64,000 nucleotides of DNA from Candidatus Magasanikiibacteriota bacterium (GCA_052033375.1 JBPOJQ010000003.1:10503-74502), one strand, 5' to 3'; counted from the first letter of the stretch, positions 20,932 through 64,000 are shown. The notes: generated from the letters alone by a model not told the origin. Translations and numbers: made by a program.

Positions 20932-20939
20932 AGGATTTA

Positions 20940-46437: not shown

Positions 46438-47328
46438 ATGCTTCGCTCGATGTTTCTGTGCATCTTCCTCTTCCCGTTCATGAGCTGCGACATCACCATC
46501 CCGAAAAGCGGGAAAGTGATCCGAGGAACCTATCACAGTGCCGCAGACACCACCGGCGGCGAGGACACTGCCCCAGTCGACGTGTCTACGTCGACGGAGG
46601 CTGATGGCACCTCTGTCACCACTCCCCAGGACGTCGGCACCTCGACGGCGACCGACACCACCAGTACCTCGCTCGGTGAAGACACCGCCGACTCTCATGA
46701 CACCGAGAATCCGGTACCACCGACTCTCCGCGTCTGCAGCACAGACGGGGAGTGCATCGACGAGTACCCGAACAACGGGTTCGTCTGCGACGACGACGGA
46801 CACTGCACGCACCCGTCCTTCTCCTGCGAGACCGACATCGACTGTCCTCCGGACAAAAATGTCTGCAACGGCATCAAGGTGTGCCTTGATCGAAGCTGCT
46901 ACCTGACCGAAAACCCTGACTGCGATGATGGGAATCGCTGGACAGGCGACTTCTGCAGTCCAGCAGACGGCTGTGGACACTACAACATCGAGTGCACGGA
47001 CGACCAGGGCTGCGGGGAGGACGAGTACTGCGATACCGAAAGCAGGCGTTGCGAACCGATCGGCGCATGCGATAGTCCGGACGACTGCGATGACGGAAAT
47101 GCGTGCACCTATGATCGGTGTACGCTGACCGAGTGCTCAAACATACCTATCGCATGCGCCGACTGGGATCCGGACACCATGGATGTCTGCGACCCGACGT
47201 TGATGTGCCTCTTTACCGAGGGGTGCACCACGAACGCGAACTGTGTCGACGATGACTTCTCAACCGAAGACGTCTGCGATGACGGTTTCTGCAGGCACAT
47301 CTGCAAGGACGGTGAATGCCCTCCTTGA
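46438..47328 (+). CDS. Cysteine-rich secreted lipoprotein with Myxococcus-type cysteine-rich repeats (GC-rich island 2)
   Basis: Lipobox FMSC with Asp at +2 (CDIT). Asp/Thr-rich linker. Repeated CDDGNxCTxDxC spacing: DCDDGNRWTGDFCSP, DCDDGNACTYDRCTLTEC, and others. Very GC-rich. SD AAGGGA upstream. Confidence 0.65.
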   Translation: MLRSMFLCIFLFPFMSCDITIPKSGKVIRGTYHSAADTTGGEDTAPVDVSTSTEADGTSVTTPQDVGTSTATDTTSTSLGEDTADSHDTENPVPPTLRVCSTDGECIDEYPNNGFVCDDDGHCTHPSFSCETDIDCPPDKNVCNGIKVCLDRSCYLTENPDCDDGNRWTGDFCSPADGCGHYNIECTDDQGCGEDEYCDTESRRCEPIGACDSPDDCDDGNACTYDRCTLTECSNIPIACADWDPDTMDVCDPTLMCLFTEGCTTNANCVDDDFSTEDVCDDGFCRHICKDGECPP

Positions 47329-47382
47329 GGGCGTAGTGGTGGGTGAAGACACCTAAAGAGGATCCCACTACTGGGTCATGCG

Positions 47383-47430
47383 CGCCACACCAGCGCGCAT
47401 GACCCACTTCAATCTATTTTGCAATTTGCA
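47383..47430 (+). terminator. Rho-independent terminator
   Basis: Perfect 13-bp stem gggtcatgcgcgc/gcgcgcatgaccc with a 7-nt loop, then acttcaatctattttg. Confidence 0.6.
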
Positions 47431-47557
47431 GAAATACTACCTGTTGTATATCAAAGCTATGTCCACATACTACAACACGCACTATTTCTGCGCATTGGAA
47501 AACTGAAAAGACACGGTGTTTTTTCAGACAAGACGACTCACCCAACAGAGGAACACA

Positions 47558-48285
47558 TGTGGCGCATTGCTCTTTCTTTGGTCATCATGTTACTCGTGGC
47601 CTGCGACATCACGGACGGTGAATCATACGAGTCCCTCTCGATACACAGAGAGGATGTCACAGACACATCGAGTGACGGTGTACTCCAGCCAGCAGATGAC
47701 ATCATCCTCGAACATGGGCTCATGCGTGTCGAGAAAATCGACACTGCTCTTAGCCATCTATTCACCCCCGACACCACGTCTGATTCCACATCTGATGTAC
47801 AGGCACCCGACACTGCCGTACCAGACGAAATCGAGGTACTGTTCACAGAGACTATCCCCTGTACAGAGGACTGGCACTGTGCACCTGGCAAAGAGTGCAC
47901 TCCTGATGGACTCTGCATCACACAGCTCGTGTGGATCGCTGTCATTACAGGGTCCGACGGCTCTCATCCGCCAGTACTGGACCACAGCGGAGAGGAAGTC
48001 ACACTCTGGTATGGACGTGAACCATGGACAGAGACACATCAGGTTCCCTACACAGGATGGCTCCCGCTCGCAGAACTCTGCGAGAGTGGGATTGAAATGG
48101 AACTCCGGAATCCGTCTGACGACGGGTATCCATATGGCGAAGGATGTGTGACTGATTTCAAGAATCTGACACCCTACCTATTCGCCAAGCGACTGGAGTT
48201 CACCATCCATGAGAGCGGTACTGGAGACATGTGTCCAGAGATGCTCCACATCGCTCGAGATCAACTACCCTGCGACAAGGACTGA
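47558..48285 (+). CDS. Secreted lipoprotein of the same family, with the shared C-terminal LWYG module (GC-rich)
   Basis: Lipobox LLVAC with the same CDIT continuation. SD AGAGGAA 5 nt upstream. The C-terminal VTLWYGREPWTETH aligns with KVKLWYGNHTEPETY of the 60165-60902 gene. The ORF-track start at 47419 is AT-rich leader. Confidence 0.6.
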
Positions 48286-48298
48286 CGCATCCGGAGAG

Positions 48299-48375
48299 TG
48301 ACGCACGATACACCGCGTCGCTCTCCGGCCCACACACTTTCGAACTACTCATATTGAGTGGTTTTTTGTTATAAA
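48299..48375 (+). terminator. Terminator region: a GC hairpin (14-bp arms, one mismatch) followed by an AT hairpin and a T-run
   Basis: ccggagagtgacgc...gcgtcgctctccgg, then actca-tat-tgagt ggtttttt. Confidence 0.5.
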
Positions 48376-48529
48376 AATACTTATGTATATTCTGGAGAAA
48401 CCTACGACATCGACATCACAAACTCCGCTTGGACACACGTCCATCTATCTGATGCTGATGGTTTGTCTAGTGTACACAAAAATCCACACCGAAAAGGTGT
48501 GGATGTTGCTACTATACTTTTTTTCTACA

Positions 48530-49705
48530 TTAGACTCTTACTGAAGAAAATAATGGTGATTTTTTTGCTAATATACCTCGATATACACCTTCTGTCTTTT
48601 CTACAATATGTTCCCATTCATACTTCTCATAAATAATTGCACGATTCTGCTTACCTACCTTCATTCGATCTTCTTTCTTCAATTTCATAAATTTCTCAAG
48701 TCTGGACACCAGCGAGTCTACATCATTTTCTTTGAAAAACATTCGCTCATCTCCAATAATCTCTCTATGCTCTGGAATTGAGGAAAGTAATACTGGAATT
48801 CCATGGCTCATCGCTTGAAGTACTGTAATTGGCAAACCTTCATTTATTGACGGGTGTACGAGCGCACGCGCATGCGCATAGAGCTCATTGAGTGCTTCCC
48901 CAGACTGAAAATCAGTAAAAATTACATCATTCATAGTCGCTGCCGAAATATGCAGACTCTGAACATATGAATCAGTATATGCCGCCCCACCTACGATAGC
49001 CAATTTGAGCGACTGAATTGTTTTATTCTTTCTATTTCTTTCTTTTAATTTTTTGAATGCTTCAATCAAAATATGTGCTCCCTTATGGGGTACCAATCGA
49101 GAAATCATTACTATGTATCTACCAGACGCGAGACCAAATGATGTGATATGTGATTTTGTTTTTACCTTTGATGGCATATCGACCCCATTCGATATATACG
49201 TCGTATCTACACCATACTCAACTTTCAGATACTCGTGCAAACTTTTTGACACACAAATAGTGTCGTGTGCAAACGTATATGCAGCTCTCTCACCCAATCG
49301 AAGAATCGCCCTAGCAAACCAGTTCCATTTTTGATGAAAACGATCCAGTGAATGGAGCGTGACTATTACCCGCATCCGTGGTCTGAATATTCGAGGAATC
49401 CACGCGAGAAGAGCTGGGCCAACCCCGTGATAATGGATGACATCATAGGATGCAAAAAGTGCATGCATCGTCGAAGTGAAGACATGCACAATAGTATCAA
49501 GATGTTTGGTCTTAATCGTTCTAGTATGTACACGCTGAACACCCTCGACAGTATCAGTGCCTGTGCTACCGGTATACCATTTTCTCGAGTATACGGTCAC
49601 TGTGTGTCCACGTTCAGCAAGACGAACCGAAAGATCGTGAACGTGTCTCTCAACGCCACCGTAGACTGCGGGAATACCTTTTTGACCAATCATGGCTATA
49701 CGCAT
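48530..49705 (-). CDS. Glycosyltransferase family 4
   Basis: MRIAMIGQKGIPAVYGGVERHVHDLS...GHTVTV in the N-terminal domain. C-terminal GT4 motifs LAIVGGAAY...EGLPITVLQAMSHGIPVL. Confidence 0.75.
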   Translation of the reverse strand: MRIAMIGQKGIPAVYGGVERHVHDLSVRLAERGHTVTVYSRKWYTGSTGTDTVEGVQRVHTRTIKTKHLDTIVHVFTSTMHALFASYDVIHYHGVGPALLAWIPRIFRPRMRVIVTLHSLDRFHQKWNWFARAILRLGERAAYTFAHDTICVSKSLHEYLKVEYGVDTTYISNGVDMPSKVKTKSHITSFGLASGRYIVMISRLVPHKGAHILIEAFKKLKERNRKNKTIQSLKLAIVGGAAYTDSYVQSLHISAATMNDVIFTDFQSGEALNELYAHARALVHPSINEGLPITVLQAMSHGIPVLLSSIPEHREIIGDERMFFKENDVDSLVSRLEKFMKLKKEDRMKVGKQNRAIIYEKYEWEHIVEKTEGVYRGILAKKSPLFSSVRV

Positions 49706-49854
49706 ATGCTACAGATATACACAGTTATATCGGATTAACGAACATCGTAGTATAACACAGACAAGAGCTTTTGTCAAGCATGGTTTTCTCTCTGGTATAT
49801 GATATAAAATTGCTTATTTTAGCCATTTTTTTACTTCTTCTCCCCTATACGTTC

Positions 49855-51705
49855 TTAGCGTACAGTACCACCTTTTGCACCCCCTCGCGCATCTGTGTTG
49901 AGCGATGCATCAAAAGCACCGAGCGCACGCGTGAAAGAGTAGCCGATATACGAATCCCACCCAGAAATTTCGACACTCTGTATCAAAACTGGAGTGGTGC
50001 CGCGATCAGCCTCAGTCGGTGTCAAACTAAGCTCAAAAAATACACCTGCATTCGAGTGTGCTGAAATAGTTCCCATATTCCAACGTAGTGTGCGTGTCGA
50101 TGGAGTATATACTGGTGCTGAACCTTGGGTAACACTAGTTTTTCCAGTCCACACGACTCCAGGAGACAATCGCGCAGTAAATATACCCTCAGTCACATTA
50201 CTCGTTGTGTTACGTATAGTGAATAGACCTGCATACTTGGTCTCTTTTCCCACTTCAGGAGGAAGAGGTCCTCTACCCAATTGATCCCCCTCATCCGTAT
50301 AATAACGAATTTCACCAACCAATGTGACGTCAGTACCAACTTTGATTGATTCAGGTACTGAGACCGCCTCTACTGATACTTCTGGTGCTAATAGCACATT
50401 CCCTTTAAATCGAACCGTGGGCTGAAGTACGATATTGGTACCTGCATCAGATGTGGAAATAACTGGAACTAATAAGGTGATGACTCGTGATTCTCCGGAT
50501 GGTATTGAACGCAAATTAGTGTGACGGACTGAATTAAGTGTCACGGTATTCTGAGCTATCGAGCCTGCATTTGCTCGTGCTGCTTCTGACACATTTACTG
50601 TTCCTCGTGGAAACGACACCTCAATCACTCCTCCCGACAACTCTACAGTACCTCTATTGAAAATATTCACTAATAGCCTTCCTGTCTCACCAGGTTTGAG
50701 AGATGAAATCGCTGAATCCCACGCAGTGGTTATCTGCACTTCAGGATGTCCAATTGTCATGGTTTTTTTCACGACTGATTGTGGAATCGTCTTCCCCTGC
50801 ACGATAATTGCTGGTGCAAGTTCGATTGTATACCCGGACTGTGGGAGAGTGTCTGAGATATGCAATGATCCCCGTAATGTCACCGCCACATTCGGACGTA
50901 ATTCAGATACTGACCACGCATGCTGGTCTCCCAGACCTTCAGTCGTTGAGACATGTTCTACGACTCCAATTGTCTGGAACGGTGCAAGTGGAAATACGAT
51001 ATCTCGCAATATCTCATCGCCTGTGTTGGTAAGCGTGATAGAAAAAGGAATATGTGAATCTTCAATCACCTTATCCTGGATGTCGATTGATGCATTGAGA
51101 AGTGAACCACGCAAAAATATGATATGCGGACCTACTTTTTCTTCAACATGATTCTTTCCGTCCTGTCGATATGCGATCGTTGCATGAATATGATCTTCTA
51201 CATTGGGTGTTCCATAAAATCTTCCTGCCACTGATACACTCCCTTCTTCACCCACTCCAATAGTTCGAAGATTGAATGTCTGCGTTTCACTTTCGAATTG
51301 CTCTTTCGGTTCAGCTGCACCGACAATAAAACCATCGGGCAACTCGACAGATAATCGCACATCAGCCAAACGCACACTGCTCTCATTTGTATAGTTAATG
51401 GTATATGTGACATATTCACCACTCAATACCCTATCCTTCGAAGGGACGACAGAGAGATACACCAACTCGGTCACTGTCGGATTATACGTACTCCACCCAA
51501 GCAGTGCAGCACCAATGACTATGAGTGTTGCCACCAATGACATGTCGAATAAAAATAATTTTCTTGCATGTGAAAACTGGAGATGATACCGCTTTTGATA
51601 ATGCATCTCGGCAAAATGAATTGGTGATGCTAAAAATGCGAAAAACCATCGATGTGGAGCGTGGAATAAATGGTGCTTAGTGAGATGTGTTTCAACGAAT
51701 TTCAT
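49855..51705 (-). CDS. Membrane-anchored beta-rich repeat protein (DUF11/CARDB-like), hypothetical
   Basis: N-terminal transmembrane segment LVATLIVIGAALLGW, then about 550 aa of beta-strand-rich Thr/Val/Ser repeats with no catalytic motif. Confidence 0.4.
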   Translation of the reverse strand: MKFVETHLTKHHLFHAPHRWFFAFLASPIHFAEMHYQKRYHLQFSHARKLFLFDMSLVATLIVIGAALLGWSTYNPTVTELVYLSVVPSKDRVLSGEYVTYTINYTNESSVRLADVRLSVELPDGFIVGAAEPKEQFESETQTFNLRTIGVGEEGSVSVAGRFYGTPNVEDHIHATIAYRQDGKNHVEEKVGPHIIFLRGSLLNASIDIQDKVIEDSHIPFSITLTNTGDEILRDIVFPLAPFQTIGVVEHVSTTEGLGDQHAWSVSELRPNVAVTLRGSLHISDTLPQSGYTIELAPAIIVQGKTIPQSVVKKTMTIGHPEVQITTAWDSAISSLKPGETGRLLVNIFNRGTVELSGGVIEVSFPRGTVNVSEAARANAGSIAQNTVTLNSVRHTNLRSIPSGESRVITLLVPVISTSDAGTNIVLQPTVRFKGNVLLAPEVSVEAVSVPESIKVGTDVTLVGEIRYYTDEGDQLGRGPLPPEVGKETKYAGLFTIRNTTSNVTEGIFTARLSPGVVWTGKTSVTQGSAPVYTPSTRTLRWNMGTISAHSNAGVFFELSLTPTEADRGTTPVLIQSVEISGWDSYIGYSFTRALGAFDASLNTDARGGAKGGTVR

Positions 51706-51837
51706 AGATATCTATCTCAAAACTTAAAACTCAAAATTCAAAACGAGAACTACAAATGTACAACTCCTTATTCTTCAATGTAATAATACTTGATCCAAGC
51801 ATATTTGCAACTTCTGCAAGCTCATTTTGTTTTTATT

Positions 51838-53847
51838 TTACAATGCCCCTTCACTCAACGTCACAATTTCATCTATTCCATCAAAATCAATATCAAGTGC
51901 TCGCACCTCTACCCCTGGCTTGAATACTGTAGAGTATGCGTCAAATGATTTGTATTTTTCTTTTCCCTCAAGTGAGAATACTCTGACTGTCGGTTTTCCT
52001 CCATATCCTTTTCCTGCAATAATTTCCTGCACCCCATCTCCATCCACATCTCCAGCAGCTACTGACACCCCGCCTGTAAACGATGTTTCAAAAGCTGTAA
52101 ACGAATGTATTTTTTTATACTCATATCCAAATAAAGTGATCGTCGGACGTGCTCCTGCTCCTGACCCAACAATGAGACGGGATGGTACTTTTTCTGTTGC
52201 CTTGGTCAGACTAATGTGATACCCGCCTGTATAGGTATTTCCAAATGGAAAAAAATCATTTGCTAATGTATTCCCATGACGATTGTACGACCGAATTGGT
52301 TCTCGAAAACCTGCGCTCGGCGCTGTATATATTTCATAAAAGCCATCATTATTCAAATCACCCACTGCCACATTCAATGAACCTGTATAATTTGCACCAT
52401 ACGGCATCAATCTGAATAAAATCTGGCCATCATCTCTCCATGCTTGAATTTTATTTCCCATCACCACAATCAATTCTTCAGCTCCATTAAAATCCAAATC
52501 AATGTGAGCAATCTGAGCACCACCTTTGTGTTTCTCCTCAAAAACGAAGAATCCATTTTTTGCCCGCTCGCCATCTGCTCTGAAAAAACGAGCAAAAAAA
52601 CCATTGGTAAACACAATCTGTTTGAGCGTCTGAAATGTCTTGAGTAATATAATTCCATCTTTTGGCGCAAGTGTGACTTCTGCAACAATTGCTCCATTAT
52701 TTATTTCTGTATCCTGCGTACCATGTATTTTTTCATATTCACCACCGAGAGAGACACCTCGCGTCTCGCCTGTACTATTGACAACCGCAATTCCATTTTC
52801 AAATGTTCTACTCCACACGTCTTCGGCATATTTGGATTTTCCTGTCTGCGAGCGTGCAGATCCGAGCGGATCGCCAAGCGATACTCCATATTCATCATAA
52901 TTCCACAGCCGTGCATGATCCTTGTCCCCATAATCAAACGAATAGTAGCCATTTTCAAGCAATGCTGAAGTAAGACCAAAACGCATACTGCGATAATTTT
53001 TTGCATTCTCGACATTTCCTGTATTTGCATTGATAATATTCACTGTTGGTCGATTTCTTGTAAGCTGATTCTCCTGATACACAGACATAATTTCTGACCA
53101 TGGATGATTCTGAAAATTTTCAATCATCTTTCCATTGAGTGATTCAGTATACCCTCGCGTATGCCCATTACCGATAATAATAGGATCACCCGGAGCCTGT
53201 GCGCGAGTATCCTCATATAATTTTTTCATTCCTTCATACCATTTCTGGTCAATACCTGTATCTGGAGACCCGTTGCGATCATAATCTACCCGAGTACCTG
53301 AAAACCATGTGAGATCTTTCCACGCATTATCATAAAATACACCGTCCCATACTCCAGATCCCAAAATTTCTGTAGCAACAAAATGAGACAAGTACTCATT
53401 GAAATTCTTTCCATTATGTTCTGGGGCATTTTCAGCTAGATTGAGCATTGTCGTGCCCTGCCAAAAACTATATGCAGCACCCAGGTCGTTTGCCAGATAC
53501 CACTCGGAAGAAATTCCTCGCGCCAAACGATCACGCATCTTACTCGGACCCCCGAGCGCATCATTTCGAATTTCTTGGGGAGTAATGTATGCAAGCAAAA
53601 TAATCCCCGGATTCAAGCGACGCAATTCACGGAGACGCTCGGGATTGGTCACTTGATTTTCCATATCAAGGACCAAGAGATCCCATTTTGCAAGTTCACG
53701 CATCTCAGCATCCGTAATACTCCATTTCAAAAAATAATTTGCAGTTTTTGGATACGTCTCAGTATATGCAACAGACACACTCACTACAGTGCCATATGCG
53801 CACAGTCCGAGAAACAAAATTGATTGTATGAAACGCGCCAATGTCAT
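51838..53847 (-). CDS. Secreted glycoside-hydrolase-like (GHL) domain protein with C-terminal FG-GAP/VCBS repeats
   Basis: Signal peptide. The N-terminal about 400 aa (WDGVFYDNAW..., GNGHTRGY...) resemble the putative glycoside-hydrolase GHL families. The C-terminus carries calcium-binding FG-GAP-type repeats: DLNNDGFYEI, GDVDGDGVQEII, DIDFDGIDEIV. Confidence 0.45.
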   Translation of the reverse strand: MTLARFIQSILFLGLCAYGTVVSVSVAYTETYPKTANYFLKWSITDAEMRELAKWDLLVLDMENQVTNPERLRELRRLNPGIILLAYITPQEIRNDALGGPSKMRDRLARGISSEWYLANDLGAAYSFWQGTTMLNLAENAPEHNGKNFNEYLSHFVATEILGSGVWDGVFYDNAWKDLTWFSGTRVDYDRNGSPDTGIDQKWYEGMKKLYEDTRAQAPGDPIIIGNGHTRGYTESLNGKMIENFQNHPWSEIMSVYQENQLTRNRPTVNIINANTGNVENAKNYRSMRFGLTSALLENGYYSFDYGDKDHARLWNYDEYGVSLGDPLGSARSQTGKSKYAEDVWSRTFENGIAVVNSTGETRGVSLGGEYEKIHGTQDTEINNGAIVAEVTLAPKDGIILLKTFQTLKQIVFTNGFFARFFRADGERAKNGFFVFEEKHKGGAQIAHIDLDFNGAEELIVVMGNKIQAWRDDGQILFRLMPYGANYTGSLNVAVGDLNNDGFYEIYTAPSAGFREPIRSYNRHGNTLANDFFPFGNTYTGGYHISLTKATEKVPSRLIVGSGAGARPTITLFGYEYKKIHSFTAFETSFTGGVSVAAGDVDGDGVQEIIAGKGYGGKPTVRVFSLEGKEKYKSFDAYSTVFKPGVEVRALDIDFDGIDEIVTLSEGAL

Positions 53848-53850
53848 ACA

Positions 53851-54933
53851 TTAATGAGATGAAACAAATGATGCATATATTTGTGCAATGGCACGATAAT
53901 GATCGTGTATATCGCCCTGTTGCTGTACATACTTCTGTGCTGTCTTTCCGACATTCGATATTTTTTCTGGATTCTCAAGCACCTGTCCAAGCAGACGTTT
54001 CAATTCTTGAACATTGCCTGTTTCGAACAGATACCCTGTGCGTGCATTCTCGATGATCCCCGCCCCCGCAGCAGTGCTTGCAATAACCACCCGACCTGCT
54101 GCCATAGATTCGAGTACTACGAGACTCATACCTTCCCATAACGACGGCTGTAGTACGATATCGATATCTTTGAGGGCCATCGCCATATCACTCTCATATC
54201 CATGCCAGACGATACGATGCGCAATTCCCAGTGCTCGCGCAGTATATTCCAATTCAGACTGAAGACTTCCCTCTCCATACACATGGTACTCCCACGGAAG
54301 ATGCTTTAATTCAGCGAGTGCACGCAATGCGTACACGTGCCCTTTTTGTTCTTCCAATCTTCCAATTGTTGCAAGTGATATATGTGTCGCATCTATTTTT
54401 TTTGTAGTGACTCTGCGCCATTTTTTCGTCTCAACTCCGTTATAGATAATGCGTATTTTTTCTTCAGGAATATTGAAATGGTCACGCGAATATACTGCCA
54501 CCGAATCAGATACGGCCACGACTGCGTCAACTTTTTTCAAACATATTTTCCATATCATACGCTTCATAAACGATGTATGATATTCCACATTATGCACCGT
54601 CGAAATCCAGATAGTCTGAGGGTATATCCGTTTCCATGCATATCCAATGATGTCACCCCCCATCAGATGGGTGTGAATGATATCTGGCTTGATGCGCAAC
54701 AACTCACGTTTCAAAAATTTCCACACACCCCACCGTCCCCCATGCACCTTCCGACTTCCCACAATCAATCGCGCTTTTGTCTGCTCGAACAATGGACGCA
54801 ATGCACCGTCATCGACACTACTCATCACATATACTGAAAAATCTTTTTTGCTAAATTCTTGTGCATACTGCAACACCAGACGTTCAGCGCCACCTGGATA
54901 TAATCGTGGAATGACTTGTACAATCGTGGTCAT
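53851..54933 (-). CDS. Glycosyltransferase family 4
   Basis: From the internal Met: MTTIVQVIPRLYPGGAERLVLQY, plus C-terminal GT4 motifs. The upstream extension of the ORF (MCCIAMNAK...) is unlikely to be real. Confidence 0.7.
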   Translation of the reverse strand: MTTIVQVIPRLYPGGAERLVLQYAQEFSKKDFSVYVMSSVDDGALRPLFEQTKARLIVGSRKVHGGRWGVWKFLKRELLRIKPDIIHTHLMGGDIIGYAWKRIYPQTIWISTVHNVEYHTSFMKRMIWKICLKKVDAVVAVSDSVAVYSRDHFNIPEEKIRIIYNGVETKKWRRVTTKKIDATHISLATIGRLEEQKGHVYALRALAELKHLPWEYHVYGEGSLQSELEYTARALGIAHRIVWHGYESDMAMALKDIDIVLQPSLWEGMSLVVLESMAAGRVVIASTAAGAGIIENARTGYLFETGNVQELKRLLGQVLENPEKISNVGKTAQKYVQQQGDIHDHYRAIAQIYASFVSSH

Positions 54934-54940
54934 AAATCTA

Positions 54941-56422: not shown

Positions 56423-57501
56423 ACACTGGTGGTAGTAATCTTACGATATATGTCCTCATACGCCTTTGACATAGTCTCTACGCTCCCCCTTTTCTCCACC
56501 CACCGCTTTCCTTGGACTGCTATTTTTTTTGCCAGAATTGGATTCGAGATATATTCTCGGATGGCTTGTGCGAGCTGTCGACTGTCCTCTGCTTCGACCA
56601 ATACACCATTTTCTCTATCACTAATAATTTCGGGGATACCCCCGACACGGGAAGCGATTACGAGCCGGCCTGATGCCAATGCTTCGAGGATGACGATTCC
56701 CAGCCCCTCCCACCGCGAAGGAGCGAGCACTATATCTGCGTCTGCATATGCCGCGGCAGCATTCTCGGTTGCTGGTTTCCACATCACACGATCACCCAAT
56801 CCTAATTCTTTGGCATACTGCATGAGTTGTTCTTTTTTTTCTCCCTCACCCACTATTGTCAACATGCATGGGATATCAGTAATTTTTTGTAGTGCCTCAA
56901 GCGCACGCGCGTGTCCTTTTTGTTCTACCACTCTTCCAATCATGAGTAATTTATATGGCGATGCAAAAGATGCGGGGGGGATTTTGGCAAAATGCGCTAA
57001 TTCAATACCATGCATAATCACTCGAGTATGTTCGGGTGCAATCCCATACGCAATTTTCATGTATTCTCGGACAGCATGTGACGGCGCCGTGTACACGCGA
57101 GAATAATTTTTCATTACACGTTTGATTCTTCCCCAGAGCCACGATTCTTGTAAATTAATATTATGTTCAGTTGTGACTACAGGAATATCCACTGACTTTG
57201 CAGCCAGTCTACCCCACAAATCTGCACTAAAAAGATGTGTATGTACTACATCAGCCCCCATACCACGGAGCATCTGTGCCAGTTTTTTTCTGCGACTCAG
57301 ATACCCGATGTGATCTAGCGGAAACACGCTACATGCAACAGTGGATGGTAATTCCCGAGCAAGCGGACGATCATCCCAGAGTGTAATCACTGACTGACGA
57401 ATATATTTTGATGATATGTGTTTTGCAAGCGATACCACAAAACGCTCGGCTCCTCCGAAACCAAGTCTAGGAATAATATGCACGACGTGTATTTGTTTCA
57501 T
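56419..57501 (-). CDS. Glycosyltransferase family 4
   Basis: IHVVHIIPRLGFGGAERFVVSLAKH, and the C-terminal EGLGIVILEALASGRLVIASRVGGIPEII. Confidence 0.75.
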   Translation of the reverse strand: MKQIHVVHIIPRLGFGGAERFVVSLAKHISSKYIRQSVITLWDDRPLARELPSTVACSVFPLDHIGYLSRRKKLAQMLRGMGADVVHTHLFSADLWGRLAAKSVDIPVVTTEHNINLQESWLWGRIKRVMKNYSRVYTAPSHAVREYMKIAYGIAPEHTRVIMHGIELAHFAKIPPASFASPYKLLMIGRVVEQKGHARALEALQKITDIPCMLTIVGEGEKKEQLMQYAKELGLGDRVMWKPATENAAAAYADADIVLAPSRWEGLGIVILEALASGRLVIASRVGGIPEIISDRENGVLVEAEDSRQLAQAIREYISNPILAKKIAVQGKRWVEKRGSVETMSKAYEDIYRKITTTSV

Positions 57502-57547: not shown

Positions 57548-57582
57548 AAAAATAACAAACAAAAAACCGCATAGTGCGGTTA
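57548..57582 (-). terminator. Rho-independent terminator of the GC-rich lipoprotein gene
   Basis: aaccgca-tag-tgcggtt hairpin. On the minus strand it is followed by ttttttgtttgtt. Confidence 0.6.
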
Positions 57583-57592
57583 TTCTAGCGTG

Positions 57593-57640
57593 CCCTTCTA
57601 CTCTATCTTCAAGATAATACTTGAATTCAGAGTAGAGGGG
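57593..57640. repeat. Inverted repeat (12-bp arms, one mismatch, 24-nt AT-rich spacer) at the left edge of GC island 3
   Basis: cccttctactct...agagtagagggg, with a nested ttcaag/cttgaa palindrome in the spacer. Confidence 0.55.
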
Positions 57641-57766
57641 AGGAAGCGGTCGCTGTAGTAGCGAGCGCACTTCCCCCAGTTTGTGTGATTGTCTTCGAAC
57701 ATTCACCTACAGAAGCGAATCACACGTTCACTTCGAGATGCTCCTGCAGTCGTCGCAGAAGAAGTT

Positions 57767-59815
57767 CTAGGGTGCCGCGGGGCATCCCAGGTCGTTGTCA
57801 CCGTTCTCGTCGGAGAGCCACAGGTTGCCCGGCGGAGCGCCGTCGCATGCCTGCGGATCACGAACCTCGAAGTCGTTCGCCTTCGTGACACCATTGACCA
57901 TGACGGTCAGGGTGGACTTCGAGGGGAACCCCGGGTTGCAGTCCCAGAACAAGTTCGTGCTCGGACGGTTGACGGCGATGTCGACGCCCCAGCTGCATGC
58001 GAGCGTCTTCGGCAAGGTCCCGTCGAAGGGCATGTTGCCGGAGATCGTCGTCCCGTTGTAGTAGAAATTGACCTGCCAGGTCTCCGACGTGTCGGTCGAC
58101 GAGACCTGCACGCGGACACCTTCCACGTGCTGGCAGACGAGCTCGACGCAGGTGTCGTAGGTCAGGGGATTGCTGTCGTTGCAATCCGCGTTGACCGTGC
58201 AGTTCCCCGTCGGCGTGTACACGCAACCCGTCGCCGGATCGCAGGTGTCGGTGGTGTTGGAGTTCCCGTCGTTGCACACCACCGCGGTGTGCTGCACCCC
58301 CATCTCGGGATCGCACGCGTCGATGGTGCAGGCGTTGTTGTCGTTCGTCGTCACCGCCATGTGTTGGCAGGTGTTTGCCGAACAACTGTCGATCGTGCAG
58401 ACGCTTCCGTCATCGCACGTGAGCGGCGTACCCGCGACGCACCCGGAAGCCGGGTTGCACGTCTCGGTGCCGTTGCATGCGTTCCCATCGTCGCAGACGA
58501 TCGCGACGTGTGTGACCGCGCCGGTCTCGGGATCGCACGCGTCGATGGTGCAGGCGTTGTTGTCGTTCACCGGATCGACCTTCTGCGCCATGCACTGTCC
58601 ATTGACGGGATTGCACGTGAGGCCTCCGCAGAGGTCCCCGCCGCAGTCCTTCTCGACGTGGGTGACCACGCCGGTCTCGGGATCGCACGAATCGATCGTG
58701 CAGTTGTCCCCGTCGGTCAGGACCTTCCAGCCCGTCTCGACGCACACATGTTCCGCGCACGCCATCTCGGTGACGCACGCGGTGGTGGGCTCGCAGTCGT
58801 CGTCGTCTGCGCATTCGCACGCCTCGGACGGCATGAACGCGTACTCGCAGACGCCCTGCAAGTTGCAGGTGTCGGTGGTGCACGTGTCGCCGTCGTCGCA
58901 CTCGGCCCCCTCACCTTCCGAATCGCAGTACACGAGACACGAGAGGTTCGGCAGATCCCAGGGCAACACGTCGGGGTAGAGGTCTCCGTCGCAGTCGACG
59001 TCGCAGACGTCGCCCATGCTGTCCTCGTCCATGTCCTCCTGCCCCGCGTTCTTGAAGCGGGGGCAATTGTCCTCGCCCTCGCAGATGGGCATCACCAGCG
59101 CGTTTCGCGGCATCGAGACGGGGGCAGCTTCGTCGCAGAAGCTGTCGTTGTCGTCGTCGGTGTCGCAGACGTCGCCCCAATCGTCGCCGTCCAGGTTCGC
59201 CTGGTCGGGGTTGACGTTGTCGGGGCAGTTGTCGACGGGGTTCAAGACCCCGTCGCCGTCGACGTCGTTGTCGCAGACGTCTCCGACGAAATCGTCGTCC
59301 AGGTTCGCCTGGTCGGGGTTCGGATCGGCGGGGCAGTTGTCCTCGCCCGCACACATCTCGACCTGACCCGGATGGGATTTCTCCCACCCGTCCTCGTCGA
59401 GCCAGGGGTCGCAGAAGCCGTCGTTGTCGTTATCGTTGTCGCAGACGTCTCCGAAGAGATCCCCGACCACGGTGACGTTGCCGTCGGCACCGGCCAGGAC
59501 CTGGTCCAGGTTCGCCTGGTCGGGGTTCGGATCGGCGGGGCAGTTGTCGACGGGGTTCAAGACCCCGTCGCCGTCGCGATCGGTGTCGCAGACGTCGCCC
59601 ATGCCGTCGCCGTCGGTGTCCACCTGGTCGGGGTTGTACCACCCCAAGCAGTTGTCGCGGTTGTCCGCGACGTCGTCACCGTCGGTGTCCGCGGCCTTCG
59701 TGAAGCCGAGCCCGCCGTCGTTGCCGGATTCGTCATACGCACACGCCGCCATGAACCCCATGGCAAGGGCACCCAAGATGCAGAGCACCCGGGTGTTGTT
59801 GTTCTTCAGACGCAT
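57767..59815 (-). CDS. Secreted lipoprotein with about 8 thrombospondin-type-3 calcium-binding repeats, many Myxococcus-type cysteine-rich repeats and the shared C-terminal module (682 aa)
   Basis: Signal and lipobox ...GFMAAC. TSP3 units DTDGDGMGDVCDTDRDGDGVLNPVDNCPADPNPDQANLD are repeated. Cysteine-rich units DNNACTIDACDPETGAVTHVAIVCDDGNACNG are repeated. SD GGAGGAAGG lies 4 nt upstream. Very GC-rich. The C-terminal LFWDCNPGFPSKSTL aligns with TYWGCNDGLPSKRDI of the 60165-60902 gene. Confidence 0.7.
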   Translation of the reverse strand: MRLKNNNTRVLCILGALAMGFMAACAYDESGNDGGLGFTKAADTDGDDVADNRDNCLGWYNPDQVDTDGDGMGDVCDTDRDGDGVLNPVDNCPADPNPDQANLDQVLAGADGNVTVVGDLFGDVCDNDNDNDGFCDPWLDEDGWEKSHPGQVEMCAGEDNCPADPNPDQANLDDDFVGDVCDNDVDGDGVLNPVDNCPDNVNPDQANLDGDDWGDVCDTDDDNDSFCDEAAPVSMPRNALVMPICEGEDNCPRFKNAGQEDMDEDSMGDVCDVDCDGDLYPDVLPWDLPNLSCLVYCDSEGEGAECDDGDTCTTDTCNLQGVCEYAFMPSEACECADDDDCEPTTACVTEMACAEHVCVETGWKVLTDGDNCTIDSCDPETGVVTHVEKDCGGDLCGGLTCNPVNGQCMAQKVDPVNDNNACTIDACDPETGAVTHVAIVCDDGNACNGTETCNPASGCVAGTPLTCDDGSVCTIDSCSANTCQHMAVTTNDNNACTIDACDPEMGVQHTAVVCNDGNSNTTDTCDPATGCVYTPTGNCTVNADCNDSNPLTYDTCVELVCQHVEGVRVQVSSTDTSETWQVNFYYNGTTISGNMPFDGTLPKTLACSWGVDIAVNRPSTNLFWDCNPGFPSKSTLTVMVNGVTKANDFEVRDPQACDGAPPGNLWLSDENGDNDLGCPAAP

Positions 59816-59868
59816 TTGGCCTTCCTCCGTAGTGTGAGGCCGTTGAACTCCAGCAGTGACACTGTGTC

Positions 59869-59938
59869 TCAGCTAGAGGGTGGCTATCGATACAAGATAT
59901 GTTGCATATATCAGTATCTGCACCCATCCTCTAGCTGA
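59869..59938. repeat. Inverted repeat (15-bp arms, one mismatch, 39-nt spacer) upstream of the 57767-59815 gene
   Basis: tcagctagagggtgg...ccatcctctagctga. Confidence 0.55.
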
Positions 59939-60164
59939 ACATAGAACTTATGTGATTATAATGAACATACACACTTGAGAATGATTCTCCAGTGGCGCAT
60001 ACCAGATACCTCTCTAGATATCCGATATGCGTGGACACAATCGTACCAACATATCAAGAAAAGAGTATTTTGTCAATATAATTCTATAAAGTGAATTAGT
60101 GGTGCTCGCGAAAGGAGGCGGCATAGCGTATACGCCATCCTACCCTTCGCGAGACACCCGCCCC

Positions 60165-60902
60165 TCAGTCACATGCGAGCTGTGCCTGCAGGAAGTAGAG
60201 ATCCCCCTCTCCCTTCCCACCGCACGCAGTGTTGGGGACCTCCCATCCGAGATCCGCGGCAAAATAACCGAATGCCTCTGCACCGTCGATCTCGACCGCG
60301 ATATCCCTCTTCGAGGGAAGACCATCGTTGCATCCCCAGTATGTCCCTGGAAACTCCTGGTCCTCTACCGCGAGAGTGAGCATGCCGTTTTCGACGCAGA
60401 GATCCATCTTCCGGATCTCGAAGCTCGAGTTCATGGGATAGGTCTCTGGCTCGGTGTGATTCCCATACCAGAGCTTCACCTTCCCCGGACGCTCTGCGCG
60501 TACGGTGAAATGAGTCACCCGGTGTACACTGGAGCATGCCCCAGTGTCGGGGACGCACTCGTCATCCGTCCAGCGATTCCCATCGTCGCAGTCGATTGCT
60601 CGATTACGACATGTGCCCTGGATGCAGACATCGATCGTGCACATGTCGCCATCATCGCAGGGGTTTCCCTCTGCAATGAACTCCTCGATGTCGCACTCAC
60701 TGGGCGACGCCGGAGGAAGCTCGATCTCGTACCGATCACGGATGACCCGCGAATCAGCATCTTCGACTTCCTGGAGTATATCCTCGATCCCCGTCGACGT
60801 ATCGACCTGGATCATGGTCGTACCCCTCTGTCTCATGTCCTCGATGCACGCAGTCGTAATCACGAAGTAACAGACGCACAAACGAAACATCTTAGAAAGC
60901 AT
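60165..60902 (-). CDS. Cysteine-rich lipoprotein, a family member with the shared C-terminal module
   Basis: Start at ATG 60902 (MLSKMFRLCVCYFVITTAC lipobox) with SD GAGGGGA upstream. The ORF-track start is a GTG 12 nt earlier. Motifs NPCDDGDMCTIDVC and DCDDGNRWTDDEC. C-terminal LWYG...YWGCNDGLPSK. Confidence 0.6.
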   Translation of the reverse strand: MLSKMFRLCVCYFVITTACIEDMRQRGTTMIQVDTSTGIEDILQEVEDADSRVIRDRYEIELPPASPSECDIEEFIAEGNPCDDGDMCTIDVCIQGTCRNRAIDCDDGNRWTDDECVPDTGACSSVHRVTHFTVRAERPGKVKLWYGNHTEPETYPMNSSFEIRKMDLCVENGMLTLAVEDQEFPGTYWGCNDGLPSKRDIAVEIDGAEAFGYFAADLGWEVPNTACGGKGEGDLYFLQAQLACD

Positions 60903-60990
60903 GTGTCCCCTCACGTATTGGTATGAACTGGCGTGTAGAATTCCTCTACCGTTGATATACCATCATCATATGGATATACCCAAGGTAATG

Positions 60991-61017
60991 GAATTTAAAA
61001 AACCCGTGGATACGGGT
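60991..61017. terminator. Bidirectional rho-independent terminator
   Basis: aaaaaa-cccgt-ggat-acggg-ttttt. Confidence 0.55.
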
Positions 61018-61365
61018 TTTTCCCGCGTAAAAGTCGATCTTCTCCGCGGCTCATTTTCGTAACCCGCTTCATAGTAAAGCAGATACACCATTGTACCATA
61101 CCACACACAGGTGTTGTATGACTGGGTCAGCATAGTATGCCTATTCTGACCGTGTTATTTCCCACATCTCTTTACCAATACTCACTAGTCGCTCACTGTA
61201 ATCTGAGTTCTGAATTTTGATAAAGATATGTTGGAATGGGAGAGGGGCTCGTCAATGAATCGTTTGCACGATCCACTGAACGCTAGGCCCCGCTCCCGCA
61301 ACTTGTACCATAGTGAACCCTGAGTCTTGTTGCTAAACTACTCAGGGTACGTACCGATATGTCCT

Positions 61366-62373
61366 CTACTCCTCGGGGCAGTAGAAGTTGGTCCACCGGT
61401 TCAGGTCGCAGACGAGCCAGCAGCCGTGCTGCTCGGGCGTCGTCCCGACGAATACGTCCGCAGGCGCGTAGTTGTAGTGCGCGTCTGCGTTCGTGACACA
61501 ACGGTCCTCGCCGTTGTCGTTTCCGACAACGAAGTCAGACCCGACCTGGTTCACGAACTGCTGGACATTGAACAAGGCAACCTCACCCTCACAAATCGTG
61601 AGGGTGTGGCAGGAGCCAGCACCGTCCGGGCAGGACATCCAGATGGCCTCGGGCCACCCGAGGGAGCCCGCACCGCCAACCGACGCCTGAAAGCGCCAGT
61701 TCTGCTTCACCGTGAAGGTGAAGCACTCCGGCGAACCCTGATCTTCGCAGCGGTTCGAGGAGTTGTTGCACTCCTCGCCATCCCCGCAGTCGCCATCCTC
61801 GACGCAGCAACCGGGGATGGGCGTGTTGTAGCACACACCACTCACCGTGTTGCGCCAATCTTCCGTGCAGATGTCTCCATCATCGCACGTGAAGGTTGCG
61901 TCATGGCAGGCGCCCCACTGGCCCCAGTGGCCGGCGGAGCACGTCCGCTCCTGCGTCCCCGTGTTACCGGTGCCGCAGGACTTCGACTGCTCGGACCCAT
62001 CGACGCACTCGTCGGGGTCTGCGCAGGTGCCCCACTGGCCCCAGTGGCCGGTGGTGGCGCACGTCCTCGTCTTCGTCCCGCGACCATTGAGGCCGCAGGA
62101 CACCTGCTCGGTCGCGCCGACCGAGCACTGCTGGGTGGGGGGGAACGGCGTGCTGTCGCACACGTTCCCTCTGCCGTCGCCGTCCGCGTCCGCCTGATCC
62201 TGGTTCGGATCGGCGGGGCAGTTGTCGGCGTCGTCCTTGACGCCGTCGTTGTCGAAGTCGGTGTCGGTGTCGGTGCAGTCGTCGCAGCCCTCCTCGGGCT
62301 GCTTCTCCCAGTCGCACGCGACCGCGACGATGATGAACGACGACGACAGGACGAACATGGTGATGTTCTTCAT
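61366..62373 (-). CDS. Lipoprotein with TSP3 repeats and a cysteine-rich C-terminal region (family member)
   Basis: Lipobox VAVAC with Asp at +2. TSP3 units DFDNDGVKDDADNCPADPNQDQADADGDGRGNVCD. Cysteine-rich C-terminus. SD GGAAAGGAA upstream. GC-rich. Confidence 0.65.
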   Translation of the reverse strand: MKNITMFVLSSSFIIVAVACDWEKQPEEGCDDCTDTDTDFDNDGVKDDADNCPADPNQDQADADGDGRGNVCDSTPFPPTQQCSVGATEQVSCGLNGRGTKTRTCATTGHWGQWGTCADPDECVDGSEQSKSCGTGNTGTQERTCSAGHWGQWGACHDATFTCDDGDICTEDWRNTVSGVCYNTPIPGCCVEDGDCGDGEECNNSSNRCEDQGSPECFTFTVKQNWRFQASVGGAGSLGWPEAIWMSCPDGAGSCHTLTICEGEVALFNVQQFVNQVGSDFVVGNDNGEDRCVTNADAHYNYAPADVFVGTTPEQHGCWLVCDLNRWTNFYCPEE

Positions 62374-62459
62374 GACTATTCCTTTCCCCCTGTCTGAGGG
62401 GGACTCTCGAGTGATCTCGCCGGAAACCTTCCGGCGAACATTGTAACGCTATGGTACTT

Positions 62460-62512
62460 CCGCAGCGTGTAGAGAACATATTTTTGTAAAAACACACTCT
62501 CTACACACTGCG
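62460..62512. repeat. Inverted repeat (16-bp arms, one mismatch, 21-nt AT-rich spacer) upstream of the 61366-62373 gene
   Basis: ccgcagcgtgtagaga...tctctacacactgcgg. A second, perfect 7-bp inverted repeat tacagaa-tttc-ttctgta lies at 62531-62548. Confidence 0.6.
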
Positions 62513-62749
62513 GATTTGTAAGGTACATGTACAGAATTTCTTCTGTATATGAAGTAGTGTCCACCTGTCTACTCCCTATACAATAGAAATACGTATCATA
62601 ATTTTTCTCACCTTATTCCCCACATCCATATGATATGAAGAGTAAGTTGAGCTCTGGAGAACGAGAAGGTGCCACCCTTCATACGTTTTCCAGAGCGATC
62701 GATTCCCGAGCCCTCATTTTCCTCCGAAGAGGTATTGAGGAGCTCCTGA

Positions 62750-63577
62750 CTAGAACCGATATCCGGCGGTGAACACACCGCCGAGACCAAAGGAGATCTC
62801 CTCCGGTCTCATCTCGACACCGAGGATGGCGTCGAGACCGAGCACCGCTCTCCGATCTTCCCCGAGGAAGTACCGGATTGCAGGCCCGAGGCCCGCCGTG
62901 AAGTGATCCGTTCGGCTGAAATTACCGTGATCGACCAGCGTGCCGACCACGATCCCACCCGTAAGGAACCCTTCTCCCCAGAGGTAACCGGTCCGTGCGG
63001 ACCAGCCGAACCCATGGGGCGATGCCCCCGCACCGGCGACGAGGAAGAATTCCCCGCCCTGGTTCGGAAACACCAGACCGACTTCGACGCCAGCTGAGAG
63101 GCCGACGAGATCACTCGCCAGCCACCCGCCGAGGCCGAACATCGGCCCCCCGAGCTTGTCGATCTTGCCCTTGATGCCGGCGACCTCGACCTCGAGCTTG
63201 TCGATCTTGCCCTTGATGCCGGCGACCTCCGCACCGAGCTGTTTGCACTGCCCGAGCAGGGTCACCAGGTCCGCGGACGGACCCTTGACCTCCATGAGCG
63301 CCCCCTCGAGGGACGTGATCTTCCCCTCGAGGGACGTGATCTTCCCCTCGAGGTTCTGATCTGTCCTGCGGAGAGCTCCTGCCCTGCGGAGAGCTCCTGC
63401 CCTCCACTTCTCCTTCTCGACCTCGAAGCGAATCGCCTCGAGGTCGACGAGTGCTGCGCGAGCCTTGTCGACCGCCCCCTTTCGGATCTGGTCGAACTGC
63501 TCTTGGGCGGTGGGCTCTGCAGCCTGCACCGGCGACGCGACCAGCATCAGCATGGCCGCAACGATCATCATCATTCC
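62750..63577 (-). CDS. Secreted coiled-coil protein with in-frame tandem repeats and a Gly-rich beta C-terminal domain ending in Phe (outer-membrane-barrel-like)
   Basis: Probable start at MMMIVAAMLMLVASPVQA-AEP (signal peptide). The ORF-track start at 63895 adds an Arg-rich extension that looks artefactual. Repeats: AGALRR x2, LEGKITS x2 and a 14-aa unit built on AGIKGKIDKL x2. C-terminal ...GGVFTAGYRF. Confidence 0.5.
   Translation of the reverse strand, partial: GMMMIVAAMLMLVASPVQAAEPTAQEQFDQIRKGAVDKARAALVDLEAIRFEVEKEKWRAGALRRAGALRRTDQNLEGKITSLEGKITSLEGALMEVKGPSADLVTLLGQCKQLGAEVAGIKGKIDKLEVEVAGIKGKIDKLGGPMFGLGGWLASDLVGLSAGVEVGLVFPNQGGEFFLVAGAGASPHGFGWSARTGYLWGEGFLTGGIVVGTLVDHGNFSRTDHFTAGLGPAIRYFLGEDRRAVLGLDAILGVEMRPEEISFGLGGVFTAGYRF
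63152..63401. repeat. Nucleotide-level tandem duplications inside the coiled-coil gene
   Basis: A 42-nt unit x2 at 63152-63235 (36 nt identical), a 21-nt unit x2 at 63303-63344, and an 18-nt unit x2 at 63366-63401. Confidence 0.7.
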
Positions 63578-63621
63578 CTTCACGGCATTTCTCCTTCCCC
63601 TCCGTGAGGAGGGGACGTGAC

Positions 63622-63945
63622 TCAGTTGTTGCTGCCCTTGTCGATCTGGCCGCCGAAGGCGACCGTTCCGAGACGCCAGCACCGTGCTGCCGCCTCGTCG
63701 TCTTCTGCCTGGATCAGGCACTTCGCTGCCCTCTGGCACTCGAGTCCCTGATCCTCGTCGCCGGTCTTGTCGACGAATTCGTACACGCACTCCTTGAGTG
63801 CGAGTTCGAATTTCTCGTCCACGTTTCTGCCCTTGGCGGCACCGCGGAAGACCGTCTCGATCCCACCCTCGAAGGTGGCGACGACGACCGACCACTCCTG
63901 ATCGGTGAAGAAGCCACCGGGGCGGAGCCCCTTGACCTGCGTCAT
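63622..63945 (-). CDS. Hypothetical GC-rich ORF; may extend beyond the window edge
   Basis: Open frame with codon-like periodicity in a GC-rich context. No recognisable motif. Confidence 0.25.
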   Translation of the reverse strand: MTQVKGLRPGGFFTDQEWSVVVATFEGGIETVFRGAAKGRNVDEKFELALKECVYEFVDKTGDEDQGLECQRAAKCLIQAEDDEAAARCWRLGTVAFGGQIDKGSNN

Positions 63946-64000
63946 GACGCAGGTCCCGAACTCGTCCCCGGACAGCCCTTTGCAGGGATCCGCCGGGTTC

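Follow-up and report, generated by a model that had tools for sequence, protein, structure and literature searches.

Modular candidate lipoproteins with an undescribed C-terminal module, encoded by GC-rich genes at an AT-rich surface-polysaccharide locus of a Magasanikbacteria-like bacterium

A 64,000-nucleotide (nt) stretch of DNA from a Candidatus Magasanikiibacteriota bacterium (GCA_052033375.1, JBPOJQ010000003.1:10503-74502; the whole stretch is called the window below, and all coordinates refer to it) raised the question of what five GC-rich genes, designated G1 to G5, encode within an AT-rich surface-polysaccharide locus. On the balance of the analysis, G1 to G5 probably encode modular, lipid-anchored surface adhesins or matrix proteins of a Magasanikbacteria-like bacterium of the Candidate Phyla Radiation (CPR). 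An initial annotation made from the sequence alone had described the products as a paralogous family of cysteine-rich, calcium-binding lipoproteins, possibly acquired horizontally, and this description was partly upheld and partly revised, as detailed below. All five open reading frames (ORFs) were present in the ORF listing of the window:

46438..47328, plus strand: G1, 296 amino acids (aa), 10.8% Cys, GC content at third codon positions (GC3) 0.74; near-canonical lipobox FMSC/DIT, linker rich in Ser, Thr, and Asp, Dicty_CTDC-like repeats below threshold, no C-terminal module (CTM; see below).
47557..48285, plus strand: G2, 242 aa, 3.7% Cys, GC3 0.56; lipobox LVAC/DIT, acidic Ser/Thr-rich linker, small Cys knot, CTM.
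57767..59815, minus strand: G3, 682 aa, 8.5% Cys, GC3 0.89; lipobox MAAC/A, thrombospondin type-3 (TSP3) repeats, then Dicty_CTDC repeats, then CTM.
60165..60902, minus strand: G4, 245 aa, 6.1% Cys, GC3 0.68; lipobox TTAC/I, acidic linker, one or two CTDC-like units (below threshold), CTM.
61366..62373, minus strand: G5, 335 aa, 8.7% Cys, GC3 0.88; lipobox VAC/D, one weak TSP3 unit, two W-x-x-W/C-G-x-G repeats, Cys-rich stretch, own C-terminal domain.

The start of G2 was corrected to 47557, the start at 47558 given initially being out of frame and the resulting coordinates containing stop codons. G1 to G5 had GC 0.53-0.65 and GC3 0.56-0.89 versus GC3 0.34 in host genes, and the window outside the two GC-rich islands had 33-46% GC. 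Cys made up 8.5-10.8% of residues in G1, G3, and G5 and 6.1% in G4, but only 3.7% in G2.

The N-termini were compared with a regular expression of the PROSITE PS51257 type: K/R in residues 1-7, an uncharged stretch, [LIVMFWSTAG]2-[LIVMFYSTAGCQ]-[AGS]-C, and Cys at 15-35. This pattern was satisfied by G2 (Cys16), G3 (Cys25), G4 (Cys19), and G5 (Cys20), while G1 (FMSC, Cys17) missed it solely through Pro at position -4; of the five lipoproteins initially assigned, four fitted the lipobox pattern and G1 was a near-match. Asp at position +2 after the lipobox Cys in G1, G2, and G5, and the C-D-I-T continuation common to G1 and G2, were present as first described. Asp at +2 is a sorting signal in enterobacterial-type Lol systems; for proteins of a CPR envelope it is unlikely to act as one. 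A GGAGG-like Shine-Dalgarno-type sequence was located 5' of every G1 to G5 start codon. G3 appears to form its own transcription unit, as judged from one promoter-like and one terminator-like site, each a consensus match only:

60048..60076, minus strand: sigma-70-like promoter match TTGACA-17-TATGTT with TG before it, in the AT-rich spacer upstream of G3.
57565..57581, minus strand: terminator-like hairpin plus T-run, downstream of G3.

Two inverted repeats bordered G1, each a possible terminator or regulatory hairpin: (i) a perfect 14-bp GC-rich repeat at 47372-47406, directly past the G1 stop codon and (ii) a 24-bp imperfect repeat at 46333-46389, between G1 and the upstream gene for an HTH_17 protein. 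A motif of the extracytoplasmic function (ECF)-type promoter was not found in the spacers. A 749-aa antisense ORF (57689-59938, plus strand) ran over all of G3 and occurred also in the related locus L003 (see below); it was rejected as a gene, being the expected by-product of a GC3-rich coding sequence, with the same cause in L003.

The known repeats of the five proteins were concentrated in G3. Against Pfam gathering thresholds of 25 bits for TSP_3 (PF02412) and 27 bits for Dicty_CTDC (PF00526), G3 reached 66.1 bits in three stretches and 118.1 bits in six stretches, respectively:

58946..59692, minus strand: TSP3 repeat region of G3 (calcium-binding type; approximately aa 42-290), located by Pfam TSP_3 (2e-18), the cartilage oligomeric matrix protein (COMP) chain 3fby (1.4e-33), and motif positions.
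58121..58918, minus strand: Dicty_CTDC cysteine-rich repeat region of G3 (approximately aa 300-565; PF00526, 1.2e-34, six stretches).
62152..62283, minus strand: TSP3-like unit of G5 (aa 31-74), with 20.5 bits in Pfam (below 25) and partial NCBIfam matches of approximately 1e-8.

The G3 repeats matched the type-3 repeats of solved COMP, TSP-2, and TSP-1 chains with E values from 1e-33 to 2e-13. No TSP3 match was obtained by the Pfam search in G1, G2, or G4, and calcium binding, initially extended to the whole set, is therefore limited to at most two of the five proteins, G3 and, weakly, G5. Dicty_CTDC scored 22.2 bits in G1 and 16.8 bits in G4, both under the threshold, and had no Pfam match in G2 or G5; the BLASTP similarity between G1 and G3 (1.5e-22) was carried by the repeats. 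The cysteine repeat had been taken for the Myxococcus type (TIGR02232) but proved to match Dicty_CTDC. TIGR02232 gave no match in G1 to G5 (NCBIfam, E<=0.1), a result that is indicative at most because the control P0087, with one such unit, was also unmatched; the TIGR02232 signature, CG[DN]G...E-x-CDDGN, was absent from all five proteins. The Omp28-related selenoprotein model NF045500 matched G3 (60.8 bits) and G5 (33.7 bits) through TSP3 repeats only and below its cutoff of 200. G5 additionally contained, at aa 83-158 (61900-62127, minus strand), two tandem S-C-G-x-x-G-x-G-T-x-x-R-T-C-x-x-G-H-W-G-Q-W-G-x-C units encoded by a 117-nt DNA repeat; their W-x-x-W...C-G-x-G...R-x-C order recalls thrombospondin type-1 repeats, and Pfam gave no match to them at E<=0.1.

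The C-terminal module that had initially been aligned by eye was examined by leave-one-out hidden Markov models (HMMs) run against all 330 window ORFs. It was supported in G3, G4, and G2 and left G1 and G5 unmatched, so that it is shared by three of the five proteins:

57770..58120, minus strand: CTM copy in G3, approximately 117 aa, four conserved Cys, motif FWDCNPGFPSK; supported by alignment, HMM, and AF2 model.
60168..60518, minus strand: CTM copy in G4, E=2e-9 by the HMM built without G4 or G2.
47923..48282, plus strand: CTM copy in G2, which diverges most among the three copies; supported by alignment and by the HMM built without G2 (E=1.8e-5).
61369..61731, minus strand: G5-type C-terminal domain, distinct from CTM and shared only with the L003 counterpart of G5, which has different N-terminal and middle parts.

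The HMM built without G4 or G2 recovered G2 as well, at E=0.013. CTM comprised approximately 110 aa with four conserved Cys, and its signature consisted of a V-x-[LF]-[WY]-Y strand, an [AL]-C strand, W-x-C-[ND]-x-G-x-PS, A-C-x-G-x-x-x-G-[ND]-L, and a terminal L-x-C. It was without match in Pfam and NCBIfam and matched no PDB chain by sequence; it is put forward as a candidate for a previously undescribed domain. The AF2 models of CTM were beta-rich, with strands and helix in the same order in G3 and G4; the predicted local distance difference test (pLDDT) score was 62 for the G3 copy and 49 overall for G4, with blocks at approximately residues 131-170 of the G4 CTM reaching 70-78. A calcium-dependent carbohydrate-binding module (2xhh) shared 12% identity with CTM and is a lead, no assignment, the model having a pLDDT of 62 and Foldseek returning nothing significant.

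Outside the window, CTM was found in L003 (four copies), in L004, at the C-terminus of the Azambacteria Dicty_CTDC lipoprotein P0086 (L005), and in L007, the only locus obtained by a metagenome scan with the CTM alignment. A CTM profile search of 671 word-selected candidates returned only the fragment P0244 and missed known members, so it has little bearing on the spread of CTM. The 18,262 matches of a representative search were discarded as not CTM: long N-terminal columns of P0001 and P0086 had entered the 662-position profile, so that TSP3 and CTDC repeats were matched.

The modular architecture was compared with four known systems. (i) G3 resembled thrombospondin/COMP (PF02412; 3fby, 1yo8, and 1ux6) in its D-x-D-x-DG-x-x-D-x-x-DNCP-x-x-x-N-x-x-Q units at aa 42-290, and an Asp-rich calcium-binding repeat with paired Cys would be expected in G3 too; unlike these proteins, the window proteins were bacterial lipoproteins by their N-termini, had no lectin-like domain at the C-terminus, no EGF repeats, and no coiled coil for oligomerisation, and, in G3, continued from TSP3 into Dicty_CTDC repeats and CTM. 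(ii) G3 shared with the Dictyostelium Cys-rich repeat proteins (PF00526) a 24-residue C-x-D-G-N-x-C-T-x-D-x-C-d-p-x-x-G-C repeat in a disulfide-rich array of extracellular type, whereas here the repeats occurred in CPR lipoproteins together with TSP3 and CTM, and G1 and G4 stayed under the Pfam threshold; Dicty_CTDC proteins include slime-mould extracellular matrix proteins, and we know of no characterised bacterial function of the repeat. (iii) MtsC (NF047638), the MYXO-CTERM protein of Myxococcus cell-cell cohesion, is likewise a surface protein built on TSP3 repeats and was partially matched by G3 (114 bits); G3 is nevertheless not a member, since the matches of G3 and G5 (32 bits) were repeat-only and below the cutoff of 350, and G3 had an N-terminal lipobox and a CTM end instead of the MYXO-CTERM sorting signal. 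(iv) P0086 (Candidatus Azambacteria, 1184 aa) and P0011 (Candidatus Magasanikbacteria, 1149 aa), both annotated as 'hypothetical protein', were true relatives with a lipobox and Dicty_CTDC arrays; P0086 ended in CTM and P0011 in TSP3 units, and both genes had GC3 0.84-0.85 in AT-rich surroundings beside Wzy_C/GT4 genes, although the two proteins were longer, differed in module order and number, and shared 31-38% identity in alignable parts. The literature search found nothing linking Dicty_CTDC or TSP3 proteins to CPR. As initially proposed, the complete architecture matched no curated family in Pfam or NCBIfam; the proteins join familiar repeats to an undescribed domain and belong to an uncharacterised family of CPR bacteria.

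The setting initially described as an AT-rich glycosylation locus was confirmed by gene content: the window encoded a sugar transferase, a UDP-glucose dehydrogenase, a PMT_2-family protein, several GT4 proteins, two Wzy_C proteins, a flippase-like protein, a GHL15 plus FG-GAP protein, and a DUF11 protein. Part of these genes separated the two GC-rich islands:

48530..57501, minus strand: AT-rich host cluster between the islands (GT4, DUF11, GHL15 plus FG-GAP, GT4, Wzy_C, GT4), a conserved neighbour of the lipoprotein genes by synteny with L003, L006, and L005.

The UDP-glucose dehydrogenase of the window had an identical copy on a 92-kb NCBI contig, and its closest named relatives were from Candidatus Magasanikbacteria (74% identity). 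The backbone was syntenic with L006 (Magasanikbacteria GCA_016193335.1), in which the order was large protein, 446-aa protein, ECF sigma factor, HTH_17, DUF11, Dicty_CTDC lipoprotein, GT4, GHL15, GT4, Wzy_C, 93-aa protein, and second Dicty_CTDC protein, with ortholog identities of 63% (HTH_17), 56% (GT4), 49% (sigma factor), and 49% (GHL15); the two Dicty_CTDC genes had GC3 0.84 and 0.94 and their neighbours 0.32-0.52. By these relationships, the host is identified as a Magasanikbacteria-like CPR bacterium. L003 (CAYSXR010000001.1, a GTDB representative metagenome-assembled genome [MAG] in ENA) carried, in order, two G6/G7-like genes (for G6 and G7, see below), a G5-like gene, G4, G3, GT4, Wzy_C, GT4, GHL15, DUF11, GT4, G2, and a further CTM gene; its GC profile equalled that of the window, both GC-rich islands flanking the same GT4/Wzy_C/GHL15 cluster, and Logan contigs of SRR12762285 and SRR12762283 were identical to it. 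The title of L003, 'uncultured Gammaproteobacteria bacterium', is probably a mislabel because L003 was syntenic with the window, whose backbone matched Magasanikbacteria MAGs.

GC-rich genes for Cys-repeat lipoproteins thus flanked the GT4/Wzy_C/GHL15 cluster in two other Magasanikbacteria assemblies besides the window. L004, a JGI fragment, contained a third G3-type C-terminus, followed by a spacer of 30-38% GC and the start of another GC-rich lipoprotein gene. L005, from an Azambacteria MAG, harbored four Dicty_CTDC genes (GC3 0.70-0.85; one of them encoding P0086, the lipoprotein with CTM at its end) and other GC-rich genes beside a Wzy_C/GT4 pair homologous to that of the window (33% identity); the adjacent Wzy_C gene had GC3 0.53 and the other small neighbours 0.29-0.39. 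Three more GC-rich genes in L005 (4933-9044; GC3 0.58-0.84) adjoined the Dicty_CTDC genes and had no Cys repeats, the product of one having a signal peptide and an Ala-rich coiled coil; genes other than repeat genes therefore also belong to the GC-rich islands.

The comparison of the window with L003 disclosed segments of very different divergence:

Host genes: nucleotide identity 66-73%, synonymous divergence (dS) 1.1-2.1, ratio of nonsynonymous to synonymous divergence (dN/dS) 0.08-0.18.
G2: nucleotide identity 67%, dS 1.56, dN/dS 0.18.
G4: nucleotide identity 82-84%, dS 0.60, dN/dS 0.22.
G4-G3 spacer: nucleotide identity 93%.
G3: nucleotide identity 88%, dS 0.19, dN/dS 0.58.
Spacer between G3 and the glycosyltransferase gene (aligned part): nucleotide identity 91%.
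57552..61027: high-identity block, 87.7% over 3.5 kb including spacers, flanked by host genes at approximately 70%.
57640..58561: almost identical tract nested in the block, spanning the 3' third of G3 plus some of the spacer downstream of it; identity 94-99%, proportion of synonymous differences (pS) 0.00-0.07.

The edge of the block at 57552 was sharp, and within G3 codons 419-682 had pS 0.00-0.07 versus 0.18-0.37 in codons 1-418. Tracts of differing age were thus nested and included non-coding DNA, and therefore DNA was exchanged between lineages, codon constraint alone not being the cause; the pattern points to the G4-G3 block, 84-99% identical in the two genomes, as a recently exchanged cassette between related lineages. 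G5 had only its C-terminal domain (the last approximately 125 aa) in common with its L003 counterpart. At the G5 position, L003 encoded (3922-6036, plus strand) a lipoprotein (MKKFNKFLFVVMFISFVAAITGC) with a middle part rich in G-x-x-G and of Dicty_CTDC type, a clear module replacement relative to G5. At the G1 position, L003 had a gene cut by the locus end (20814-21065, minus strand) whose product carried a divergent CTM at its end (E=4e-4), whereas the window G1 lacked CTM; the slot hence holds different members in the two loci. From these module arrangements, the five genes are read as a domain-shuffled mosaic rather than simple paralogues: of the paralogous family first proposed, the common character of modular, secreted, disulfide-rich proteins was retained, while the end domain of G5 set it apart. 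Variable surface proteins typically show both shuffled domains and exchanged cassettes.

The GC-rich composition of these genes admitted several explanations. That the islands were an assembly chimera or contamination, with GC-rich fragments of another organism spliced into an AT-rich contig, would account for the abrupt GC shifts at 46.4-48.3 kb and from 57.7 kb to the window end, and had been named as a possible flaw by the initial annotation. However, both islands, their junctions, and the AT-rich spacers inside them recurred in the independent ENA MAG and in the Logan contigs of the two SRR runs, and other lineages (two NCBI MAGs and the JGI fragment, in which an AT-rich spacer separates two GC-rich lipoprotein genes) displayed the same gene class and composition contrast; the chimera is effectively refuted. 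Recent import from a GC-rich donor, such as Myxococcota with their wealth of TSP3 and Cys-repeat proteins, would make the genes passengers without a settled role that keep an undecayed donor composition. It would be in line with codon usage opposite to that of the host (Asp GAC/GAT 90/19 in G3 versus 34/147 in host genes, and Asn AAC/AAT 55/6 versus 12/132), with the many high-scoring repeat matches from Polyangiaceae, Bradymonadia, and 'Deltaproteobacteria', and with the inverse relation of GC3 to ortholog dS (0.89/0.19 in G3, 0.68/0.60 in G4, and 0.56/1.56 in G2), a GC3 drop with rising dS being the expected look of decay to host composition. Against import, a search of 5.8 billion proteins gave no close donor, the best non-ortholog match to G3 having at most 50% identity over at most about half of G3, with repeat matches only; the GC shift fell at ORF ends within about 60-120 nt, and host-like spacers (27-50% GC, versus 27-45% in host intergenic DNA) travelled with the genes at 91-93% identity; the gene class and its bias occupied syntenic sites in three Magasanikbacteria assemblies and occurred also in the Azambacteria MAG, with similar neighbours; and CTM was found so far only in CPR-type contexts. 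Import is accordingly judged improbable, and of the horizontal acquisition proposed at first, the foreign-looking codon usage and the recent block exchange remained, while a close donor outside CPR did not emerge. What is unusual about the locus is the GC bias confined to ORFs, together with the cassette exchange, and we offer, as a tentative explanation with a modest chance of being right, that ORF-bounded GC-rich codon usage is actively maintained within a system of recombining surface-protein cassettes shared across CPR lineages, the cassettes being a variable attachment organ of episymbionts; in Dicty_CTDC/TSP3/CTM lipoprotein genes, GC3 of 0.7-0.9 in genomes at 0.3-0.4, beside host-like spacers, might be kept up by GC-biased gene conversion during frequent exchange or by codon selection.

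For the proteins themselves, the adhesin or matrix-protein reading would work as follows. G1 to G5 would be exported by their signal peptides and, most likely, lipidated at the Cys that follows, which would expose them at the cell surface; an acidic, Ser/Thr-rich, or calcium-binding (TSP3) spacer and a disulfide-locked Dicty_CTDC stalk would then hold a terminal domain off the membrane. Disulfide-rich stalk repeats would be contributed in G1, G3, and G4, and a calcium-binding TSP3 spacer in G3 and perhaps G5, while CTM is a plausible ligand-binding tip in G2, G3, and G4. Attachment to a partner cell or matrix is probable by analogy with thrombospondin/COMP-type matrix proteins and bacterial repeat adhesins, and the proteins are perhaps glycosylated by the adjoining GT4/Wzy_C machinery. 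Each gene would be transcribed as a unit of its own, with AT-rich spacers between the genes; the set would occupy a conserved surface-polysaccharide locus and evolve by domain shuffling and cassette exchange among related lineages. Several points weigh against this reading: calcium-binding motifs were confined to G3 and, weakly, G5; the lipobox of G1 was non-canonical; neither Lgt nor LspA was among the scanned ORFs of the 64-kb window; the association with Wzy_C/GT4 was drawn from a single Magasanikbacteria lineage, represented by three samples, and a single Azambacteria locus; and the ORF-delimited GC-richness is not accounted for by a surface-adhesin model. G1 to G5 might instead be structural envelope glycoproteins, acting as the protein substrates or the scaffold for a polymer that the neighbouring GT4/Wzy_C/GHL15 genes produce, with Wzy_C acting as a PglL/PilO-type O-oligosaccharyltransferase or the PMT_2-family enzyme acting on Ser/Thr linkers. 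The Wzy_C family includes protein O-oligosaccharyltransferases, and PMT-related enzymes glycosylate Ser/Thr-rich lipoprotein linkers in actinobacteria; the conservation of the Wzy_C/GT4 neighbourhood in two CPR lineages, the linkers rich in Ser, Thr, and Asp after the lipobox in G1 and G2, and the PMT_2-family gene in the same locus would agree with such a role. Wzy_C proteins, however, are more often ligases or polymerases, and neighbourhood alone is no proof of a substrate relationship. The glycoprotein role is somewhat doubtful as a replacement for the adhesin role, with which it is compatible and which it does not exclude.

Further features of the window were as follows:

9923-11473, minus strand: PMT_2/PMT-family protein (protein O-mannosyltransferase-like), in the same locus as G1 and G2 with their Ser/Thr-rich linkers.
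44966-45577, minus strand: ECF-type sigma factor, upstream of G1.
45875-46285, plus strand: HTH_17 protein, directly upstream of G1.
62750..63574, minus strand: G6, GC-rich; signal peptide, coiled coil containing tandem duplications, and C-terminus rich in Gly with F as the last residue; likely start MMMIVAAM; L003 homolog with 22% identity (1e-7).
63622..64000, minus strand: G7, another GC-rich gene, truncated by the window boundary so that only its 3' end is present; 35% identity to the C-terminus of a 482-aa protein at the same position in L003.

The pair of ECF sigma factor and HTH_17 genes was present also beside a Dicty_CTDC lipoprotein gene in L006. In the window, the spacer between the two genes contained, at 45745-45894, three copies of a 30-nt direct repeat (core TTTGTATATAC-N-CTATAC) that overlapped a promoter-like site at 45847-45874 and looked operator-like. 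The duplications within G6 were in frame, with 42-nt units at 63148-63231 and 21-nt units at 63303-63353; its Phe-ended C-terminus resembles that of an outer-membrane beta-barrel, which would be odd for a CPR cell, and the L003 homolog lay at the equivalent position. Searches for tRNA genes and with Rfam gave no match anywhere in the window, and two viral scans gave no match and hence no evidence for phage carriage. The idea of integron cassettes was dropped: neither repeats nor 8- or 9-mers were common to the spacers, and there were no att-like repeats.

CPR bacteria (Patescibacteria) are thought to live attached to other cells, and to our knowledge their attachment proteins are largely unknown outside Saccharibacteria. 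The genes of the locus form a recognisable class, encoding putatively lipid-anchored, matrix-like surface proteins with an undescribed end domain, a conserved surface-glycan neighbourhood, and cassette exchange, the members of which are candidates for host-contact molecules. ORFs with GC3 of approximately 0.9 between AT-rich spacers, recurring in distant CPR genomes, could help to explain how reduced genomes sustain a codon bias, and the GC3 contrast could be a simple marker by which such genes are recognised in genomes.

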